Assembly: GCA_964016885.1 (NCBI GenBank)
Contig: OZ024740.1
Span: 105,834,001-105,898,000 of the forward strand
DNA from: Eledone cirrhosa
Taxonomy: Eukaryota
Length of the DNA stretch: 64,000 nucleotides
Direction of reading: 5' to 3'
Part shown: piece after piece, positions 13,553-62,580 of the stretch
Numbering within the stretch: the stretch's first letter is position 1
Layout: each line of letters starts with the position of its first letter
Position numbers and translations under genes: made by a program
Notes under the pieces: model-generated
Seen by the model: only the letters and a program-made list of their open reading frames with translations
The model's database searches: none
Told to the model about the DNA's origin: nothing

Positions 13553-13715
13553 ATATAAGCTATCGCCGTATTTTGACTAAAGAAATTAAAGAAATTATTT
13601 AGCCTGATAGTGGGGTTAAGAACTGTCATCTTTTTCCATTTCTCCGAGGGTTCTTAACCCCACTATCAGGCTAAATAATTTCTTTAATTTCTTTAGTCAA
13701 AATACGGTGATAGCT

Positions 13716-18632: not shown

Positions 18633-18919
18633 ATGGAATTTTTTTCATATAGCATTCACACAAACAGGTACTTCACTACCTCCAATTATTTACATATGTA
18701 AAGACGTGTTTTTTTAATGTTCTTGTGTTTGTGCATTATTTATGAAAAAAACATTATTATTTATGAAACTTATCTACGTTTATATTAAATGCATAGAAAT
18801 ACGATTCTCTTATATTATACATATTGGAATTTCTGCTTGTATACATTTATATATTGATACGAAATATATAGACATATTAAATAATGGTATATTTATTATT
18901 ATTTGCAAGCCTAACAAAG

Positions 18920-28594: not shown

Positions 28595-28639
<45 letters not shown>

Positions 28640-29217
28640 ATCAACGTTCTTTCGCCGCACATCTGCGACATCATCAGTGGTACTATTATGTTTCCTCCAA
28701 TTGTATTGTAATAACCTACGCCATTTTTATTTTATCTATTTATTTATTTCGTCTTGTCTCTGTCTCTGCGCATGCGTTTGCGTGTGTGTGTATAGTGTTC
28801 GGTGTGTGTGTTCGCGTTTGAGTGTATTTGTTTTTGTTTTTGTATTCTATATTTGTTCACTAGTTGGTGTTTATATGTGTTTGTTGTTATTGTACTTGTG
28901 TATAAGACAAGACGAAATAAATAAATAAATAAAATAAAAATGGCATAGACATTACGATACAATGAAGAGAAACATAATAGTACCATTGATAATGTCGCAC
29001 ATGTGTGAAGAAAAAACTTTGATAGACTATATATATATATTTATATCTGTATTTTTAAACGCTGGTCAATCAATGATAAACATTAATTGCCAAATAAATT
29101 AAATATGGAGATATAAAAGATATAGAAGCTAAAACCAACCCAAACCAAACAGTCAGTGTGTTCTGTTATTTTTTCTGCCAATATTATACCAATATGACCC
29201 TCCCCAAGTATCACAAT
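28583..29217. mobile_element. PLE 3' UTR present as an inverted pair, with hammerhead motifs at 28650-28680 (-) and about 28985-29020 (+)
   Basis: Homologous to 60960-61456, which follows a GIY-YIG ORF. Confidence 0.8.
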
Positions 29218-29647
29218 ATATATATATATACATATCTCTGACGATATGGGATCGATTGTGCATTGGATATCGAATGCTCTACTAAATATATAATATTATA
29301 GATGTAGCGAGATCTAGGCAAATTGATGTCTATTGAAACGTACGTAAGAACCGAATAAATCTCTTTTACTGCATCTTTCTATTCTTTTTAATTCTTTATA
29401 CACGCCCCGGAATATAGCTAAACTGGAATATACACCTTTTTTCTGCATTTCGTTGAGCACCACTCTGTTGTAAGCTGACATTCCACTACACGGTACATAA
29501 CACTGTGTCCTGGAAAACATTAATGCACTCGGGCATAACCAACTATATATATATATATATATATATATAACGAAGGAAATGTGGTAAGGAACCAAGTGGA
29601 CCATAACGTACCAAAGTACTCAATACTTAGGGTCGTAGAGTGGGTAA

Positions 29648-30762: not shown

Positions 30763-30811
30763 GTGTGTATGTATGTATATGCATATATACATAAACATAT
30801 ATATATATATA

Positions 30812-31093
30812 AAAGAAATATGATTTCGCTTCAAGCATAGCTTTATACAAATATGTCTAGAAATTTCGTATTTCTAAAGAAACACGGTTTTAGGAAGCCG
30901 TAGCTATGCAAACACCGGGGCTATCGGTCTCTGGTGGTGTCCAGCCGAAGTAAGGGGGACAACCATCTATGCATTTCAGGCTTGACTGGCCTTCTTCAGA
31001 ATGATCCCTCCCACCGCTTGCTACTGCTGGACTTGAAAACAGTCGAGAATATATAGTTTTCTCGTCTGTGTAAATGAGGTGATTAATCTCATT

Positions 31094-31098
<5 letters not shown>
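30812..31098 (-). mobile_element. Retrozyme-like element, partial monomer of the 323-nt family
   Basis: Circularly permuted relative to 60235-60583; flanked by (TA)n. Confidence 0.75.
30961..31007 (-). ncRNA. Intact minimal type I hammerhead ribozyme
   Basis: GAUCAUU-CUGAAGA-AGGC CAGUCAA GCCU-GAAA-UGCA-UA-GAUGGUU: 7-bp stem I, 4-bp stem II, palindromic stem III AUGCAU. Confidence 0.9.
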
Positions 31099-31145
<47 letters not shown>

Positions 31146-35188: not shown

Positions 35189-36930
35189 CAGAGTAATTCG
35201 TGGTACAGGGATGGTCAGTAGGAATGTGTCTGTACTTGTGTGGGGGATATTTTTAACATGTTAAAAGATATTTTTCAGCTCTTGTCTTATACGGAGAAGT
35301 GTGTGTATGTCACTTTGTATGTTAATGTACGCGTGTGTATGTGTGTGTGTATATATGTGTGTGTGTGTATATATATGTGTGTGTGTGTGTGAGAATATGT
35401 GTGTGTGGGGGGGGGGGGACCAGTATTTTTGTGATACTGGTAAAAATGGTGTACATTATTCGATATTTTCAGTAAAAACGATTCTCTCAATAGAACATCA
35501 AAAACCTTAATAATAAAAGGTGTGAAATGATATATAGTATTGGCATAATACCAGGTGTGTGTGAGTGTCCAGATTGTACGTACTGCAAGGGGAATCCATT
35601 AGGCCTTGCCGTATTGGAATACTTGTGTACAAATATGTATGTGCCCATCAGTGTGCAATGCATGTGTGCGTTTATGTATGTGTGTCGGCATGTTTATATC
35701 TATAGACATCAAAATTTGTGTATATTTGTGCAAATTTGTGTATATTTGTGTTGCACCATAGAACATGTGTGTTTACGTATGTCATTGTGTTTATATGTGG
35801 ATAGAGATGTATGCTGATGTAGGTATGTATGTTGACGTGTGTATGTTGTGGGTTCGTCTTAGGGAGAAGTGTTTGGACGGGGTCCGTATTTGTTAATAAA
35901 GTGAGATTCCTTGCTGATGCGCTGGGTGTGGGTGGCATTATCTTTAAATTTGTAGAGGGGAAAGATTCTGAAGTTGGGATGATTTTGGGCGGGACAGGTA
36001 TCAATGTGTTCACTCAGTGGTATTTTCCTGTATTCCCGTATTTTAATTTGGGATCTATGGACAGTCATGCGTTGGTGGAGGCTGTTTTTGGTCTGGCCTA
36101 TGTGTTGATCTCGACAAACTGAGCAAGTTAATACATATATTAGATTTTCTGATGCGCATGTGAAATTGTGTTTTACTATAAAACGTTTTCCGAACCCTCT
36201 ATTAGGTTGATGCATATGCCACAGTTGCGTCTATCGCATTTTTTTACTGTGGGTTTCGTTGTTGTGGTTGGCAGTACTTTGGCATGTGTTAGGATGTTTT
36301 TCATTGACTTAGATTGTCTTTTGCTCTTTATGATATCGTGTGTTCGTAGGATTTGGTTCATTCTATGGTCCTTTTTCAACACAAGGATGTTCTGGAGGAT
36401 GGTGTCAAAGGCCTCATTGTTGAGGGAGTTGTGTGTGGAGATGTATGGATGAGATTTTAGTTTCGGTTGATTTACTTTAGAGTGTCTAAGGTCCTGGGTA
36501 CTGAGTTTTAGGGCACGTTGGATTCCATTGTCAATTAGTGATGCAGGGTAGTCCCTGCCTATGAGTATGTCCTTTAGTTCTTGTAGCCGTAAATAGCAGG
36601 TGTTTTTATTGGAGACTATAGTACAGATTCTCTAGTTCAGATGGCTAAGTTGTAGGTAATATTAATTTTAACGTGTCTAGGGTGGCAAGAGTTGAAAGGA
36701 AGATATTGCTTGGAGTCTGTGGGCTTGTAGTATATGTCTGTTTCTATTTTTTTGTTATGGATCTTAATGAGGATGTCGAGGAAGGGGAGTTGTTGATGGC
36801 TGTATTACATCGTGAAGTTAATATTCGTGTTGAGCCCATTTATAAGGGTGTGAAGTATCCCCCACACACGTACAGACACATTCCTACAGACACATTCCTA
36901 CTGACCATCCCTCTACCACGAATTACTCTG

Positions 36931-39770: not shown

Positions 39771-42652
39771 AAACAATAATGTTTTGGAAATTATGAGCTA
39801 TATTGAGGATATAAACAATAAAACTTCATAATTTCAGCTTTTAATATGCTGGAATTTTCTACTAATTAATTGTATGATTAATTATTTAATTAACTAACAA
39901 TATATTGTACAATTAATTATACATTAGTTAAACTTTGCCTCTCTTTTTAACTAATTCAGTATTTCGTTTATATAGTGACAATGTGTATAGTTTTGTGTGT
40001 GTATGTGTTTCTTCATGTGTGTAGACGCGTGTGTTAATGTGTGCGGATGTATGCATTTGTGTGTGGATGCGCGTGTGTTCGTTGTGTGGTTGCATGTGTC
40101 TATGTGTGTGTAGATGTGTGTGTGTGTTAGTGTGTGTGGATGTGGGTGTATTTGTGTTTGTGTGCATGTGTTTTATATTGACTATTTAATATTTAGTCAA
40201 TGATTGATGAAGATGTTCGTAACATTTTATTTATTTGTTGAAAGTTGAAACTTCAGTTTTATGTCTCCTTTAGTGAATCCTCTAAAGTCAAAAGAATGTG
40301 TGCGTGTGTGTGGGTGGGTGTGGGTGTGTGGGTGTGGGTGCGCGCGCGCGTGTGTGTGTGTGTGAGTGAGTGTGTGCGTGTGTGTGTGTGCGTGTATGTG
40401 TGTAGATAGATAGTTAGGTGTGGACGGGTTAGTTGCTACTGTCCCCTTTTTTCTGTCTCGAAAGGTATTTTACATGATTTTATAAAATTATTGTTACATT
40501 ATTTATAGTGATCGACTGATTTTAGTTATTATCTGCGTTTCTATTCCCACATTTCAATTTTCAAATCATCCATATAACTTTATATTTTTGCATCCCTGTG
40601 TTTTTATGAACTCCCCCCCCCCTCTCTCTCTCTCTCTCTTTATATATATATAGAGAGAGAGATATATATATATATTTCGTTGACAAATATATCAATATGC
40701 CCATACATGCAGATATATTGCCCTTGGTATGACAGTGTGGTTTTAGCTCAATGTAGGATAACTAGTATACTACAGAGCCGTTATAATTATAGGAATAACC
40801 AAAGAATACTTAGAAATACATTGTTTTATTAGCTAACAGTGTTTAATCCATACACCCTGGCAGGGATCATCAGAGCCTATAAACATGAGTATATATCAGT
40901 AGTTGCATGCTCTATCGAGCTGCGTCACAAGAACAAGGTTAAAGGACCAGCAGGGGGGTCCCGAGGCCAGCGCTTTATGGAAAAATGTCTTAAAAATTTA
41001 AAAATGAAAAATGAAAAATTACACCAAAAATTTATCACTTAAATGGTGCAATAGATGATAAAGAGGTTGGGAGAGGGTAGCAAGGGAAGAGTGAGGGTAT
41101 TACTCAGCATGATCAGAAACAATAAGAAAATAATAAAAAAATAATAAAAAAGTGCAAAAGTACAGGGATAATAAAAGAGATAAATATAAAGATACAAAAC
41201 AATAAAGGAACAAAAAGCCCGGAGACCCCAAAGAAATATAAGACAAAGCAAAGCATAGATGCATCAAAGCACCAGCAATGCAAAATGAGAGTGTAAAGGC
41301 AGATCAAGAGAGTTTGAAGCATGAGTCTGAGAAAATAATAGTTGGTTAGCATTGGTGTAGCCTTACATGTATGATAATCCATATGAGGGATGGTGTACTC
41401 CAATTATATCGCCTTGTAACAGGTCGATTCTCCTTATCATATCCGCGCCCTACTAACCACTGGTATATAATAAAGCACTATAATAAAGCACTAGCAAAGA
41501 CGGGTTTTAGAGAAAAAATATACTACATACATAATAACGCCCAAACCACCAGGGCCGGACAATATAATGTAATCACACACAATATGGTTTTGCCTAATAG
41601 AAGCGGACACAAAAATAGGAACTACACGGGTACTGTAGGCGGCCCTGACCAACCCCAAGGGACTCCATTTAACACGCCTCACGGTATGGCAATAACACTA
41701 ACACTAGGATAAAAGCTAGAAAATTGAAGTGCATCAGGAAAGACAGGGAAGCCTATGAATCCCTCCGGGTAAGTGTACCACCCCAGTTTCTCTCTACCAC
41801 GGAAGATGGGTTGTCTATGCCCAGGGCCAACTCTTCCCCTAGTACAAAAAATAAGGAAAGTAGACGAAGATCCAATTCCTACTTTAATCCACCTTACAAC
41901 TCGGAGGTATCAACCAATATAAAGAAAGGCATTCTTCTCGATCTTGGACGCCCCCCCCCCCCCCCCCGGAAGTAAATACCATAGTAATCATCAATAAAAA
42001 TACAATTAAGCTATCATTCTCCACTACTCCAAATCTAGCTCGTCACCTAGCCATAACGAACAACAAAAACATTAGAGGGTTTCGATACCATTGCAGCTGC
42101 GGCACACCGGCAACTACTAGATGGACCTGATGCGGAGTCACCCACCAATACTATCCACACATCCGATGTACGGTTGCCAAATCTGGAATGCACGGAAAAC
42201 CAAACATCTCCTGTGCCGCAGACTCACATACACCGAAAATGTAACTGCAGACGAAAGGCGGAGTGCCCCTAAAGGGACAATGCCTTATAAACAATATTGT
42301 CTACGCATGTGATGTTACTACTCGGACCTCCTCCAAAACATATATAGGGTCTACATCGACCCCCTTTAAGACTAGATACAACTCCCATCGCTATACATTT
42401 AGACATGATAGACTTAAGAATACCACATCCCTAGCTAGTTACATATCCCTCCTGAAGAACATTGATATTCAATACACGCTTGATTGGAGAATCATCACTA
42501 AATCATCGCAGTACAGACCCCCTATCAAGACCTGTGACCTTTGTCTCTCTGAATCACACGCCATAATACACTCCAAACTGAACCTGCTAAATAGGAAGTC
42601 GGAGATATTCTCTTCTTGCCCGCACATAAATCTTAGCTCCTTCTATTATTTT

Positions 42653-42841
42653 AGGGTGGTGAATTGGCAGTATCGGTAGAGGGTCGGACGCCATGCTTTG
42701 CAGCACGGTTACGTCCCTTTACGGACTCAGTTCAAATCCCGCCGAGGTTAACTTTGCCTTTCATCCTTACGGGGTCGATAAAATAAAGTACCAATAATGC
42801 ACTGGGTAATTGCTGGCCTTGTGCCAAAAGTAGAAACAATT
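42653..42841 (+). mobile_element. SINE inserted at the end of the PLE GIY-YIG ORF
   Basis: Family match; TTATTTTAG duplicated. Confidence 0.9.
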
Positions 42842-49965: not shown

Positions 49966-49991
49966 TGTGGTGTGTAATAATATCACTTCAA

Positions 49992-52900
49992 ATGCCTAGA
50001 AAACGTTCCAGATCATTATATGGAAGGTCATCTTCAGGGGTTAAGAGAAAGAAAACATGCCCGTCTAGCTGCTAACAGAGCCCAAACAGCTTTAGCACGA
50101 GCACACTGTTTGGATGAAAGGGAACAAAGGACTGCTGCTACACGAGAACAACAAATCAAGGAACAGCAGCAAATCAGACGAAATGATAATCAATCACATC
50201 GTTCTACTGCCCGAGCAGGAGAACAAGCCACAAGTAAAATGAACTGGCTGATGGGTGCTTTTTCTTATGACTCCCAAAAGGACTACAGCAGTAATCCACA
50301 AATCAACATTGGGAAAATTAACAAATGCTGCCAGTATTGTGTTGCCAGGAAGTGGGCAACAGAAACACCAAGTCTATGCTGCTCAAAAGGCAAAGTGAGC
50401 CTTAAAACAATACAAGAACTTCCTGAATTTCTGAAGAATCTGCTCCTTCAGCATACACCAGAATCACGACACTTCAATAAATACAACATAAAATATAATT
50501 CTGCCTTTCAAATGACATCTTTTGGGGCTGACAGGGATGTCACTGACTTTAGATTCTGTACAACTTATAAAATTCAGGGACAGTGTTACCACTTAATGGG
50601 TGGCCTTCTGCCACTTTCACAGGAGCCTCAAATTTGTGCAGGTTTATGGGTGGAGATGAAACAAAGGCACAACAAAGATGTACCAATGTCCATGGTGGAT
50701 TGCAGTTCTACATAGTCATAAAGTTACAAGAAAGGCTTCACCAACGTATCATGTACGTCAGTGTATTTAAATATGCACTGGAGCATATGAACAACACCAG
50801 AGATCGTAAAATCATCATTAGGGCAGATAAACGCCCAGCTTCAGAACATGAACGCAGATTCAATGCACCTGTCACTGATGAAGTTGGAATCATAATGGTT
50901 GATGAACAGCATGAACGACGTGACATTGTTTTGCAAAAACGAAGTGGACATTTGGAGCAAATTTGTGAAACTCATAGAGCCTATGATTCACTCCAATATC
51001 CGCTCATCTTTTGGACTGGTCAATAGGGATATCATTTTCAGCTACGGCATATCAGCCGAGGAACGGGACAAGAAACTGGCCGATCAATCAGCTGCAAAGA
51101 ATTCTATGCTTATCATTTCATGGTACGTGACCACTTCAACCAAGTTCTGCGATTCAAAGAAGTAACCAGCCAGTTCATGGTGGACATGTATGCCAAAATT
51201 GAAACAGAAATATTGGGTTTTCTGCGAAGGAATCAAACTAAGTTGAGGGCAGATAACTACATCCACCTTAGAGATGCCATCAATTCTGATGTTGACCCAA
51301 GAAATATTGGCCAGCCAGTCATACTACCATCAAGCTTCACGGGAGGACCACGTTACATGCATGAACGTACGCAAGATGCAATGGCCTATGTCAGAATGTT
51401 TGGCCGGCCAGATCTCTTCATTACATTTACATGCAATTCAAACTGGTCAGAAATATCAAATGAATTATTTCAAAATCAAAAACCAAAGGATCGACAAAAA
51501 GCAAAAGAAACTCATCTGACTCCTAAAAGAAGGAAGAATCTTTGGTGAGCTTAGTGCTTGGATGACCACTATTAAGTGGCAGAAGAGAGATCTTCCTCAC
51601 TCTCACACACTAATCTGGTGCAAGGAGAAGATAAGACCAGATGATGTTGATAAGATCATTTCAGCAGAGTTGCCCGATAAAGGTGGTGATCCAGAGCTCT
51701 TTGAAACCATCAAGTCCAAACTCATTCATGGTCCATGTGGAGTCATCAATCCAGCCTCTCCCTGCACGAAAGATCAAAAATGCAGCAAACATTATCCTAG
51801 AGCTTTTATTCGGGAATCTCCGACTGACAATAATGGATACCCCCTTTATCGTAGGCGTAGACCAGAACATGGAGGCAATACTGCAAGTTCGAGGAGAGGA
51901 GCTGACCATAAATAATCAGTGGGTCGTCCCACACAACAAATTGTTGTGTAAACTTTTAAAAGCTCATATCAATGTTGAGTATTGCAGCTCCGTCAAGGCA
52001 ATCCTATATGTTACAAAATATATCAACAAGGGCAGTGACATGGCTACCTTTATTACTGACAAAAAACTCATTGATAGTGGGCTGGATGAGGTCAAACGGT
52101 ATCAAACAGGTCGATACATCTCCAGCATTGAAGCTATCTGGCGAATCTTTGGGTTTGATATCCACCAACGCCACCCAACAGTGGTCAACCTCGCAGGCCA
52201 TCTGGAAAATGGACAGAGAGTGTACTTCACTGAGATTACTGCTCATCAGTTGGCACAAGCAATCACATGACACTACACTAACTGCTTTCTTTAAACTCTG
52301 CCAAAATAATGAATTTGCTCGATCCCTCCTATATGCTGAAGTCCCAACATACTTCCCCTGGACCAATTGCAAGACCTGGAATCGAAGAAAGCAGGGTCAT
52401 TTAGTGGAAGGTCATGAAGTCAAGTCAAGTGATGCTATTGGGCGTGTTTACAATGTCCATCCCAACAACAGAGAATGTTTTTATTTACAGCTACTTCTGC
52501 ATAGTGTTCGAGGACCAACGTCATTTGAGGATCTTAGAGGCTTCAGTGGAATGGAGTGCGCAACATACCAAGAAGCATGTAACCAGCATGGACTCCTGCA
52601 TGACAATGGACACTGGAAGAAGTGTCTAGATGAAGCAGCAATCACTCAAGTAGCCAGTCAAATAAGACAATTATTTGCTATTATGCTCACAGCATGTGGA
52701 ATTGATGAAGCTCATCTACTCTGGAAGGAGTACAAAAACAATATGTCGGACGACTATCTACATCTAGCCCGAAGACATCATGGCAATATGTATATGGAAT
52801 ATACCCCCAGGATTTACAATGAAGCTCTCTGTGACCTGTCCCATCGAGATCAGGCAATGAATAGCACATTAGCTAACTACGGGATGCCAGAGCCAGATGA

Positions 52901-54347
52901 AGAAATGGAGGTAACACAAGACATTTTTCAGGAGACAAACTACGATATTCAAGCATTTCGTAAGTTTGTGGATGAAAATGAACCTCGATTGATGGATGAC
53001 CAGAAATACGCCTACCACAATATCATCAAAAACATTCAAAATGGCAGGGGAGGACTTTTCTTCATCGATGCTCCTGCTGGCACAGGCAAGACATTCCTCA
53101 TAAATCTCCTGCTTGCAAAAGTTCGCCAAAAGCAACATATTGCCTTTGCTGTGGCTTCAGGTGGCATTGCAGCAACACTTCTGGATAGAGGAAGAACTGC
53201 ACAGTACATGTTTAAGCTGCCCATAGATCTCACACGGCATGAACAATCTTTTTGCAACATCAAGAAGAACTCAGCCAAGGGCAAGCTTCTGCAAACATGC
53301 AAGATGATAATTTGGGATGAAGCTACTATGAGCCACAAAGGAGCAATTGAAGCTTTGGACCGGACGATAAGGGATCAGAGAAAAAATTGTTGCACAATGG
53401 GAGGAGTGACAATGGTTCTTGATGGTGATTTCAGACAAACTCTGCCTGTAATTCTTCGAAGGACTCGAGCTGATCAGGTCAATGCCTGTCTGAAAACATC
53501 CTATCTCTGGCCCCACTTTCAGCTGCTGAACCTTACACCCAACATGCGAGTGCACTTAACTGGTGACGAAGGTGTCAGTGAGTTTGCCATCCAACTACTT
53601 AAATTGGGAAGTGGACTTCTTGAAAAGGACTCCAATGACCATATTCAGTTGTCATTTGTCCATACCCTTGACACAGAACAAGAACTGATTGCCAGAGTGT
53701 TTCCAAACATTCATACCAGGCAATGTGATCCGAAATGGCTCTGTGAACGAGCAATCTTAGCACCTAAAAATGTTGCCGTGAAAGAAATCAACAGAAGGCT
53801 GCTGGAGATGTTACCGGGAGAGAAAATATGCTACAAATCAGTTGACACAATTACTTCTCAAGACCAGGTTGTAAACTATCCAACTGAATTTTTGAACAGT
53901 CTTGAACAAGCGGGAGTTCCTCCACACAACCTGATACTGAAGCTTGGAGCATCAGTTATGCTACTTCACAATCTGGATCCTCCAAACTTTTGTAATGGCA
54001 CAAGACTCATCATCAAAAATATGATGTCCAATGTTCTAGAAGTTGCAATCATGTCAGGAAAACTTGCTGGTGACAATTGTTTCATTCCCAGAATACCTCT
54101 GAAGCCAACTGATTTGCCATTTGAATTTCAAAGACTTCAATTTCCGATCAGGCTCAGTTTTCCCATGACCATTAATAAATCTCAAGGGAAATCATTGAAA
54201 GTCGTTGGGTTGAATGTGGCAGATCCTGTCTTTTTGCATGGTCAAATCTATGTTGGCACAACAAGGGTTGGCAATCGTGATTGTCTCTTCATTATGGCAC
54301 CACAGGGCAAAACCAAGAATGTTGTTTATCCAGAGGCTTTGGAATGA
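49992..54347 (+). pseudogene. Helitron Rep/helicase (HUH-Y2 endonuclease plus PIF1-family helicase), intronless, with several frameshifts and stops
   Basis: MPRKRS start; CQYC..W..E....CC..GKV; YNSAFQMTSFG; LQYPL; LPSSFTGGPRYM; PDLFITFTCN; WQKRDLPHSH; YVTKY; APAGTGKT; IIWDE; DFRQTLPV; TINKSQG. Confidence 0.95.
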
Positions 54348-56277: not shown

Positions 56278-56304
<27 letters not shown>

Positions 56305-56311
<7 letters not shown>

Positions 56312-56857
56312 ACATAGAAATAAAAATAGAATCCACACACAGAAAAGATGCAATGTTTAGGCAAATTACAGAGGCAGTAAGCATAAAAGAATTACAACCA
56401 AAATTAAATAGAAAATATGAGTGGAACAACAACATCACAACTTACAATTAAGGACAAAATGAAAACACACACACACATAGAACAAACAACCAACCAACAA
56501 CATGTAAATAAATAAACAAATAGATAAATGAACACAAACACACACAGACACCCGGATGTGGCGCATGCGCAAACTGAGCACACAACACACACACAGAAAC
56601 AAAATGGCGTAGGACAGAAGAAAAGAAAGGCACAGAAACAAAGAAAGGAATCCCCAGTCACTGAAGAGGTCACAGAGTGTGTGACGAAAGGACTATGACT
56701 ATATATAAACAACTATCTGGTTGTGGAACCAACCAACCAACCAGAATTTATAAGTTTATGGATTTGTAAATTTATAAATTTATAAATATATAATAAATTG
56801 AAGTGAAAGCAACTGGTGCGTGTGTTTCTTATTGGCAACATGATCCTCCCAAAGTAT

Positions 56858-56863
<6 letters not shown>
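56305..56863 (+). mobile_element. PLE 3' end: GIY-YIG C-terminus and 3' UTR
   Basis: RQITEAVSIKELQPKLNRKYEW; tail ATGATCCTCCCAAAGTATAACAAT shared with 29195 and 61433. Confidence 0.8.
56656..56700 (+). ncRNA. Minimal hammerhead with a 1-nt insertion after the core
   Basis: AGUCA-CUGAAGA-G-GUCACA GAGUG UGUGAC-GAAA-G GA C-UA-UGACU. Confidence 0.8.
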
Positions 56864-56902
<39 letters not shown>

Positions 56903-59970: not shown

Positions 59971-60199
<229 letters not shown>

Positions 60200-60234
60200 G
60201 TGTATGTATATATGAATATATATATATATATAGT

Positions 60235-60633
60235 TGTATAAATATTTCGTATCTCCAAAGAAATACGGTTTTAGGAAGCCGTAGCTATGCAAACACCGTG
60301 GGGCTAACGCCCTCTGGTGATGTCCAGCAGAAGCAAGGGGGACAACCGTCTATGCATTTCAGGGTTAACTGGCCATCGTCAGGATGGTCCCTGCCACCGC
60401 TTGCGACTGGTGGACTAGAAGACAGGCGAGAATATATAGTTTTCTCGTCTGTGTAAATGAGGTAATTAATCTCATTTGCATATGAAGCTGCATAAGTTGG
60501 CTCAATTTATAATAGTAAAGAAATAGGATTTCGCTTCAAGCATAGCTTTATACAATATGTATAAATATTTCGTATCTCCAAAGCCTGAAATGCATAGACG
60601 GTTGTTCCCTTTGCTTCTGCTGGACATCACCAG
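60235..60633 (-). mobile_element. Retrozyme-like 323-nt monomer with terminal redundancy and a 50-nt inverted piece; HHR at 60344-60390
   Basis: 26-nt direct repeat 60235-60260 and 60558-60583; 60584-60633 is the reverse complement of 60314-60363. Confidence 0.8.
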
Positions 60634-60968
60634 TCTATAGCATAATATGTACAGAGGGTACTTGCAGAAACATGACAACAACATACATAGGTGAGACAGT
60701 TCAAAGCATGGGAGAAAGAATAGACCAACACTGGTGGAATTAAAAGGACAAAAAAGCGGTACAGTACTTTACGAAGACGCTAGACAACAACATGATGGTA
60801 ACATAGACAAAACAGAAATTAAAATAATATCTAAACATATAAATGACCCAACAGGTAGGCAAATCAGAGAAGCAAGCGAAATAGAGCTTAGAAAGCTAAA
60901 GCTAAACAGAAAAAAATGAATCGAATAACAACAACACCCAAACAAACAATACTGACTTAAGAGAAATA

Positions 60969-60999
<31 letters not shown>

Positions 61000-61456
61000 A
61001 TATATACACAAGCACAAACAACAAACACATATAAACACACACTAATAATCTAAGATAGAATACAATAACCAAAACACAGTGACCCAAATGCAAACACACA
61101 CACCAAACACTATACACACACGCAAACACATGTGCACAGACCAAGACAAAAATAAATAAATAAATAAACAGATAAAATAAAATTGGCGTAGATATACAAT
61201 ACAACAAGAGGAAACATAAGAGTACCACTGATGATGTTGCAGATGTGCAACGAAAGAACTTTGTTAGACTATATATATGTATTTATATCTATATGTTTAA
61301 CCTTTGGTCAAGCAGTGATAAACATTGATGGCCAAATGAATTAACTATCGAGATATAAATGATGCAGAAGCGAAAACCAACCAAACAGTGAGTGTGTTCT
61401 GTTATTTTTTCTGGCAATATTATTACAACAATATGACCCTCCCCAAGTATAACAAT
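60632..61456 (+). mobile_element. PLE 3' portion: GIY-YIG endonuclease remnant and 3' UTR with hammerhead at 61221-61270
   Basis: VYSIICTEGTC....YIGET...GERIDQH then RQIREASEI....LNRK; CUGAUGA-U-GUUGCA GAUG UGCAAC-GAAA. Confidence 0.85.
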
Positions 61457-61463
61457 ATATATA

Positions 61464-62580
61464 CTAGACCGAAAAATGCGGGCGCATGTGTATTAATATT
61501 CTTAAATAATAATAAACCTGGAAAAGTACAGGACAAGGAGAATTAACTCTTAAAATATTGAAGCTGGAATTTGAATTTGATGAATTCAATGTACAGTAAA
61601 ATTAGCAATGCCAAGAGATAATAAGAAATAATAATAAATTAGGGGATTTATTAGATATTAAGTCATCAGTTTGCCTAAGTCAGCAATCACCATTTTGCCA
61701 ACCAAATGCAATTAATGTCATCAATCTTTTGTACATAAATTGTCAGTTCATTTAAGTTGTCACTTTTTTTGTCCCTTTAGTGGGTTAATTATACTGTATT
61801 ACTTTAAAAATTGACATTAAAAATTAATTGAAATTAATAGTAAAAAGTAATGAGCTAAATTATGCATAAATTGTCATCATATTAAAATTATTAATCTAAT
61901 TTCATTTAAAAAAAAGTTAAGCCAAAATTTGTCAAGATCGAATTACAGTTGACTCTCCCTAATTGTCAGCGCCATTTTTTACTCAACTTTTATTTTTTGT
62001 GACTCTCCCTAATTGTGAGTCATTTTTACAGTTCCTTTGAGTGACAATTAGAGATAGTCAACTGTATTTCAAAGAGAAAATTTAGTGATCAAGTGCGATA
62101 TCATTCTGATTGATAATCTGGATTACTGTTCCTTTCTTATGAGGAAAGCAGAGACTATCTTTTAGAGATTAGCACCAAAGATTAACTAGGCCATTCCTAA
62201 TGAATCAAGGTGATTTCTAGATCGTTTCTTATTATTTAATTAATAATTAAAGTAAAAAATTATCTTGGTTGTCTTTAGGTCATTCTTGTTTTATTCTAAA
62301 TCTATCCATGAAAGAGCTAGGAATGACCATTCCACATGCCAGTGCCGAAACGCTGGCACAGAAATGCCTGCACCGAAACTTCCTGTTCCATGCCATCTTA
62401 ACACCCTTCACCTCCTTGTGATTAAGTGTGATGTCATAGGCTTATTATTGTACATTTAATTCATCAAATTCAAATTCCAGCTTCAATATTTTAAGAGTTA
62501 ATTGTACTTGTCCTGTATTTTTCCAGGTTTATTATTATTTAAGAATATTAATACACATGCGCCCGCATTTTTCGGTCTAG
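61464..62580. mobile_element. CTAG-bounded element with ~135-bp inverted repeats
   Basis: 61464-61599 versus 62445-62580; terminus resembles that at 45934. Confidence 0.8.
61944..62066. mobile_element. Tc1/pogo-type MITE
   Basis: TA-CAGTTGACTCTCCCTAATTGTCA ... TGACAATTAGAGATAGTCAACTG-TA. Confidence 0.8.

Follow-up and report, generated by a model that had tools for sequence, protein, structure and literature searches.

The 323-nt sequence that begins at position 60,235 of the analysed stretch of the Eledone cirrhosa genome (64,000 nt of contig OZ024740.1, hereafter the window) raises the question of what kind of element it is, since an earlier note had found it with repeated ends at this place and with a different start point at position 30,812, and had proposed a non-LTR retrozyme copied around a circular or multimeric RNA. 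The reading preferred here, to which a probability of about 0.55 is given, is that of an ORF-less element of the non-LTR retrozyme type, likely inserted in trans by the reverse transcriptase (RT) and endonuclease of a Penelope-like element (PLE), and probably copied from a circular monomer RNA.

Two copies of the unit were considered in the window, here called copy A and copy B (Table 1). Copy A shows 97% identity to the majority sequence of the family, and its left end is tail-less and lies at a fixed start site, P, described below. The repeat reported for this copy was exact, as a 26-mer occurs twice in the window, at 60235 and 60558 and hence 323 nt apart, and the identity stops beyond these 26 nt; this 'terminal redundancy' is only the stopping point of one arm. 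It is followed by an inverted fragment of the unit, which shares a 3-nt overlap with the direct arm, and then by the endonuclease end and the terminal repeat of a PLE family, here called F2; both the inverted fragment and the adjoining PLE 3′ end were absent from the earlier note. Copy B, which belongs to a second young subfamily, does read across the unit junction as had been stated, with 89% identity to the unit and continuous sequence over the junction. The (TA)n flanks were found on both sides of copy B and to the left of copy A, but to its right there is no TA and the F2 composite follows instead. Moreover, the absence of a credible ORF held, the longest stop-free frame round the unit being 77 codons. 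On the minus strand, 35 nt at 18856-18890 also match the part of the unit round the P site and may be a very small stump.

Table 1. Features of copy A, copy B and the adjoining PLE end (positions in the window; unit positions 1-323 of copy A are counted on the plus strand).
Feature	Position	Strand	Basis or remark
Left (TA)n microsatellite target of copy A	59971..60232	.	TRF
Copy A, 323-nt monomer (unit 1-323)	60235..60557	-	hammerhead on minus strand
Putative type I hammerhead of copy A	60345..60388	-	core CUGACGA intact, stem II 2/4 pairs, predicted cleavage after 60351
41-nt tail between fixed start sites T (unit 283) and P (unit 1)	60517..60557	-	
Hairpin at the P start site, 8 bp, 3-nt loop	60547..60565	.	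sequence and folds
Start of second pass round the unit, 26 nt ('terminal redundancy')	60558..60583	-	ends at inversion junction
Inverted fragment, unit 132 to 80 (3′ half of hammerhead)	60581..60633	+	sequence comparison
GIY-YIG endonuclease, C-terminal fragment of F2, frameshifted	60630..60916	+	Pfam PF01541, E 0.0068, below curated cut-off
F2 terminal repeat, right arm of composite insertion	60920..61463	+	ends in TA
Copy B, single arm from tail site T (unit 283-323, then 1-247)	30812..31098	-	
Putative type I hammerhead of copy B, intact	30962..31005	-	predicted cleavage after 30968

Across the 3.0-Gb genome the 323-nt unit is dispersed and ORF-less, with a GC content of 0.43. An 18-nt half-motif of the hammerhead gave 1,586 exact matches and a 31-mer of the unit gave 611, with none for the reversed control in either case, and the family would accordingly number several thousand copies. 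Random sampling of twenty 10-kb stretches yielded one weak unit fragment and was too sparse for phase counts, so the loci were drawn from exact-motif matches. The first 100 listed matches to the 31-mer, all of them on contig C1, represent 85 distinct loci, of which 83 entered the end statistics, three overlapping records having been dropped and two loci of the best-hit set left out; this sample is biased to young copies containing unit positions 33-63, and the median identity of the sampled copies to the majority sequence was 93%. Furthermore, motif searches identified older subfamilies, whose units of ~340 nt share 75-91% identity with the young ones and do not differ from them in tandem organisation or in the kinds of ends. 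An older hammerhead variant was also seen in contigs from four runs of unrecorded kind, which carry no information on expression. As for features of tRNA-derived SINEs, no tRNA, A box or B box match was found in the unit.

The start points of the arms were tabulated in the 83 loci, and they were not freely permuted: of 149 arms, 126 began at either of two fixed positions separated by 41 nt, with 66 at T and 60 at P, where ~19 would be expected if starts were uniform, and the others were scattered. Site T lies at about unit position 283 and was scored over 268-291, since the flanking TA blurs the alignment, while site P is unit position 1 and was scored over 312-5. Thus, the view that different start points reflect free circular permutation was not sustained, and what remained of it is a template longer than the unit, as 29 of the 149 arms exceed 375 nt (unit plus tail), with the longest reaching 868 nt. 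Inverted two-arm insertions appeared at 53 of the 83 loci. In the 38 pairs with both ends fixed, the combination of one P and one T end was found in 36, and in 15 further inverted pairs at least one end lay elsewhere. The same combination accounted for 57 of 60 pairs when 153 distinct loci were taken (p 6e-14), and for 67 of 72 pairs among 177 loci with a slightly wider P window. In addition, the overlap at the inversion junctions was mostly 0-4 nt, and TA was present within 20 nt of 168 of 247 outer ends.

PLE insertions are described as partial tandems with an inverted truncated copy at microsatellite targets, and their tail as 30-40 bp long and often present at one end only (PMC8557442, PMC3846280). 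In vitro, AT-rich DNA is cut and extended on both strands by purified PLE protein, which initiates reverse transcription at two internal sites flanking the tail (PMC11167929). Considering the fixed T and P ends together with these tail features, copy B corresponds to a T arm and copy A to a P arm, and their apparent permutation is therefore the tail. The insertions of the unit, judged by their end sequences, carry the tail and inverted-repeat footprint of PLEs, and the unit is very probably a retroelement mobilised by PLE enzymes. Its RNA template would be the hammerhead strand, by polarity, as in F2, where the ORF and the hammerhead are on one strand.

A minus-strand type I hammerhead had been claimed for both copies. 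In copy B, a descriptor scan located it intact, with the core at 30999-30993, stem II AGGC/GCCU and stem III A-UGCA-U, while in copy A the core was intact but stem II was damaged. No hammerhead was reported by Rfam for the window (E up to 1) or for 30800-31110 (E up to 10), and the identification of this putative ribozyme rests on the descriptor scan and on covariation. The latter was scored in 22 hand-picked copies, in which the core letters were part of the selecting pattern and few independent events are represented: 6 of the 11 hammerhead pairs had changed on both sides and 93% of the cells were paired, compared with at most 41% in a slid control. The core, whose letters had served for selection, was invariant in these copies, and stem II took the forms AGGC/GCCU, AGAC/GUCU and GAAC/GUUC; the covariation of the stems extends over subfamilies with as little as 75% identity. 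Such compensatory changes in both stems point to ribozyme selection. By a simple integrity test, 62 of 99 hammerheads in the locus sample passed and 37 failed. The motif consists of a helix I of 6 bp, a helix II of 4 bp and a helix III of 1 bp with a palindromic loop, and in the young subfamilies the base of stem II is A-U, not the conserved G-C. The canonical metazoan type I hammerhead, which works as a dimer, is distinct from the minimal form of PLEs (PMC4209133), and by its predicted helices the unit hammerhead is of the canonical metazoan type, not of the minimal PLE type.

The majority units of five subfamilies, 75-96% alike, had folding z-scores from -6 to -9 on the hammerhead strand, and in their joint predicted structure helices I and II were formed, together with a hairpin at P; by folding, a hairpin of this kind is kept in the older subfamilies. 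The predicted fold also pairs the tail with the sequence just beyond T, so that initiation at T would need an RNA that spans the junction. In the young subfamilies, the strand opposite the hammerhead folds better (z -12 vs. -8) and has more G-U pairs. The antisense strand was considered as a possible functional RNA, its more stable fold being found in the young subfamilies and not in the old ones.

The form of the template was approached through the inner ends and the shared variants. The predicted cleavage site, which lies after unit position 117, was crossed by arms 116 times and only 4 of 126 ends stopped within unit positions 110-122, with no excess over the neighbourhood; thus, a cut linear monomer copied to its end would not be the usual template. 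In 57 P+T insertions, the two arms agreed at 460 of 482 diagnostic sites, compared with a mean of 74% and a maximum of 83% after shuffling, and 16% of their rarer changes were common to both (2.3% shuffled). Likewise, two passes within 75 arms agreed at 459 of 481 diagnostic sites (62% shuffled), with 14% of the rarer changes in common (2.6% shuffled). This agreement suggests that each insertion involved repeated reading of one sequence, which a circle would predict, although shared variants could also result from gene conversion, from the succession of subfamilies or from a few source arrays that are homogeneous. No A-to-G editing mark common to the passes was found on the hammerhead strand (3 of 52 distinct shared variants), and an apparent U-to-C excess among shared variants was discarded, as 20 of 85 fell to 9 of 52 once distinct variants were counted. 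Against a circle, most copies are shorter than two units, unlike the long products of rolling-circle copying, and arms with two or more hammerheads amounted to 3 of 149. Uncleaved RNA is moreover reported as the main substrate of a PLE protein (PMC11167929), and eight of nine Xenopus dimers as showing no cleavage (bioRxiv 10.64898/2026.07.22.740005).

The explanation that survives best beside the preferred one also takes the unit as a non-autonomous element mobilised by PLEs, with a template that is either an uncut linear multimer transcribed from a small number of tandem loci or a linear RNA that is entered again through template jumps, and with a hammerhead that is retained for another step or carried along as a passenger; this explanation is judged possible rather than probable. 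Dimers and an array of ~10 units exist as possible sources. The array (L258:5630-8934, G000:C2) carries a private variant in 10 of 10 readings, and the same internal deletion in two units ~1.56 kb apart indicates that part of it arose by duplication at the DNA level. Tandem copies with two or more hammerheads are present in a minority of loci, and two exact motifs a unit apart were found at 61 places genome-wide, among which no run of consecutive exact dimers, as expected of long satellites, was detected. The lack of a pile-up of ends at the cleavage site fits a linear multimer too, as does the frequency of arm ends, which rose near one unit length, from 0.06-0.12 per 26 nt before position 272 to 0.23-0.27 over 272-349, and hammerhead mutants left PLE insertion unimpaired in vitro (PMC11167929). 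Purely linear inheritance should, however, shorten the arms and let tandem units drift, yet the passes within an arm agree at 95% of diagnostic sites; tandem read-through persists in the old subfamilies, and the compensatory changes described above speak for selection on the ribozyme. Overall, a circle is somewhat favoured as the template over a linear multimer.

It was also considered whether the copies could be 5′-truncated ends (pseudo-LTR plus tail) of an undiscovered autonomous PLE. In their ends, inversions and targets they match PLE stumps exactly, and the search covered some hundreds of loci with nine protein fragments from a few PLE families as queries. Nevertheless, the long arms enter another unit copy and never an ORF. 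No PLE ORF in pseudo-LTR orientation was found at 72 free inner ends, no parent ORF at 53 loci of old subfamilies, and in 267 locus records (overlaps included) the only same-sense PLE neighbours were nested insertions or copy A itself. Together with a hammerhead that lacks the minimal PLE shape, this makes such an origin improbable. In line with the earlier note, in none of the loci examined was the unit the terminal repeat of an ORF of its own, and with good probability no autonomous parent carries the unit repeat.

The PLE at copy A was itself examined as a candidate parent. Positions 60630-60916 have 91-93% DNA identity to F2 copies that run into an RT, and the other F2 endonuclease copies show a CX4CX2C linker and RT upstream and the same F2 repeat downstream; hence, 60630-61463 represents the 3′ terminus of a different PLE family, assigned to the Neptune type on the basis of its linker (PMC8557442). 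The F2 terminal repeat carries its own hammerhead-like motif at 61228. As a parent of the unit, F2 was rejected, since it has its own repeat and 28 of 29 other F2 endonuclease loci are without the unit, the remaining one having a unit nested at its TA end. No sequence similarity was detected between the unit and F2 or the other PLEs of the window, which are a sample of the PLE families of the genome. The joint of unit and F2 at copy A has a 2-nt microhomology and occurs once in the genome. Arms joined head to head to a truncated PLE were found at copy A and at four other loci (L131, L163, L183 and L204), involving at least three PLE families, which fits two target ends primed on different RNAs. 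By automatic count, joints of unit and PLE ORF (3 of 73, p 0.48) were not significantly enriched and singled out no partner family; at non-microsatellite ends they amounted to 5 of 40, two of them added by eye, all head to head (p 0.013). As PLE ORFs are common, with 7% of random sequence near one, this excess is weak.

Spread of a satellite or of duplicated DNA by recombination, with no RNA step, is highly improbable: one array with an internal duplication and a few clustered near-identical loci would suit it, but it is largely refuted by the end statistics, given dispersed copies with unrelated flanks, fixed outer and variable inner ends, and inverted arms. The clustered loci (L263-L265, G000:C1, about 143.3-143.5 Mb) are near-identical single-arm loci that recur every 60-160 kb, probably within a large segmental tandem duplication.

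Other elements were observed along the way. An inverted two-arm insertion of the F2 terminal repeat occupies 28611-29224, with a hammerhead-like motif at 28677 (minus), and its ends differ by ~190 nt, an offset much longer than the usual tail. Positions 56300-56870 resemble a PLE end, with a hammerhead-like motif at 56661 (plus) and weak similarity to the F2 endonuclease region, and decayed PLE ORFs of two further families lie at 35859-36631 (minus) and 41350-42679 (plus), with GIY-YIG Pfam E-values of 3e-5 and 0.02, respectively. Directly after the F2 end, 61464-62580 holds a MITE-like element with 136-nt terminal inverted repeats that are 96% identical, and 13574-13699 is a long near-perfect inverted repeat for which Rfam microRNA matches were far below thresholds. 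The reading frames at 49981-54347 (plus) are presumably those of a broken Helitron-like Rep/helicase. Elsewhere in the genome, at L007:2070-2260, a unit arm is joined directly to a piece of another hammerhead repeat family, the one with the ~530-nt unit of L320, as a chimera of two non-coding families.

For the circular monomer inserted by PLE enzymes, the following course may be proposed. A tandem locus would be transcribed on the hammerhead strand, and paired hammerheads would cut out monomers, to be ligated into a compact circle. A PLE protein would then nick both strands of a TA target, and on a single template one cDNA would be primed from T and a second from P; both would proceed round the unit for variable lengths before being joined head to head by microhomology. 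A wider proposal is advanced only tentatively, namely that a self-cleaving RNA circle has been maintained over a sequence turnover of 25% or more without a parent transposon by offering PLE proteins a two-site initiation structure, so that one complex may prime both ends of the TA break on one circle, in every case one at T and the other at P, and may combine it with another PLE RNA at the opposite end, as in copy A. If the proposal is true, the family would offer a minimal substrate of 323 nt with which the formation of PLE tails and inversions could be resolved. Two countable rules follow from the loci: the start sites of the two ends almost always differ, and one source sequence underlies both arms. 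These rules constrain the integration mechanism of PLEs, and the unit would make a small construct for purified PLE protein. No report of this family, or of the P+T rule in retrozymes, was found in the open-access literature, and the 323-nt family could already have an entry, without a name, in a repeat catalogue.

Both the retrozyme class and its link to PLEs are already published proposals. Metazoan non-LTR retrozymes are described with monomers of 150-450 nt, a GC content under 50% and no ORF (PMC7229834), and the unit family, known here from DNA alone, shows every DNA-level feature of them. Like those of coral and mussel, axolotl Rtz331/353 and the newt satellite (PMC7229834), it is short (323 nt), with 43% GC, no ORF, a compact predicted fold and tandems, and its hammerhead resembles axolotl HHR_Amex1 in being predicted as canonical type I with a 1-bp helix III and a palindromic tetraloop (PMC7229834). 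The earlier proposal of a non-LTR retrozyme candidate therefore stands in monomer size, GC, hammerhead, tandems and lack of an ORF, but not in free circular permutation. The long direct arrays of metazoan non-LTR retrozymes differ from the unit, which occurs mostly as dispersed arms of 0.3-1.7 units in inverted pairs, and its fixed ends and TA targeting are not among the features described for these elements in PMC7229834.

The use of PLE enzymes by retrozymes was proposed in PMC7229834 and PMC4209133, and Li, Clavereau and Pollet argued for retrozymes as non-autonomous PLE derivatives (bioRxiv 10.64898/2026.07.22.740005). The unit is in line with the latter proposal in its PLE machinery, and many of their families are likewise largely monomers. 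Their evidence, from Xenopus, consists of co-occurrence and pseudo-LTR similarity, whereas here it is an insertion footprint, with no parent pseudo-LTR found; the footprint thus adds to a link so far argued, in the sources cited, from co-occurrence and similarity. With the Chlamys non-autonomous PLEs such as MRC1 (PMC8557442), the unit shares non-autonomy, formation of pseudo-LTRs and head-to-tail insertions; those elements share 3′-end similarity with an autonomous family and are mostly without hammerheads, as described in PMC8557442, while no such partner was found for the unit. Compared with endonuclease-bearing PLEs such as Poseidon PAc, Neptune and Adineta Pen2, the unit has no ORF, the whole element is the repeat, the tail is 41 nt long and the hammerhead appears canonical instead of minimal. 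What it has in common with them is a tail at one end (theirs of 30-40 nt), two internal RT start sites, a hammerhead within the repeat, partial tandems, an inverted 5′-truncated arm and AT-rich or microsatellite targets (PMC11167929, PMC8557442, PMC3846280).
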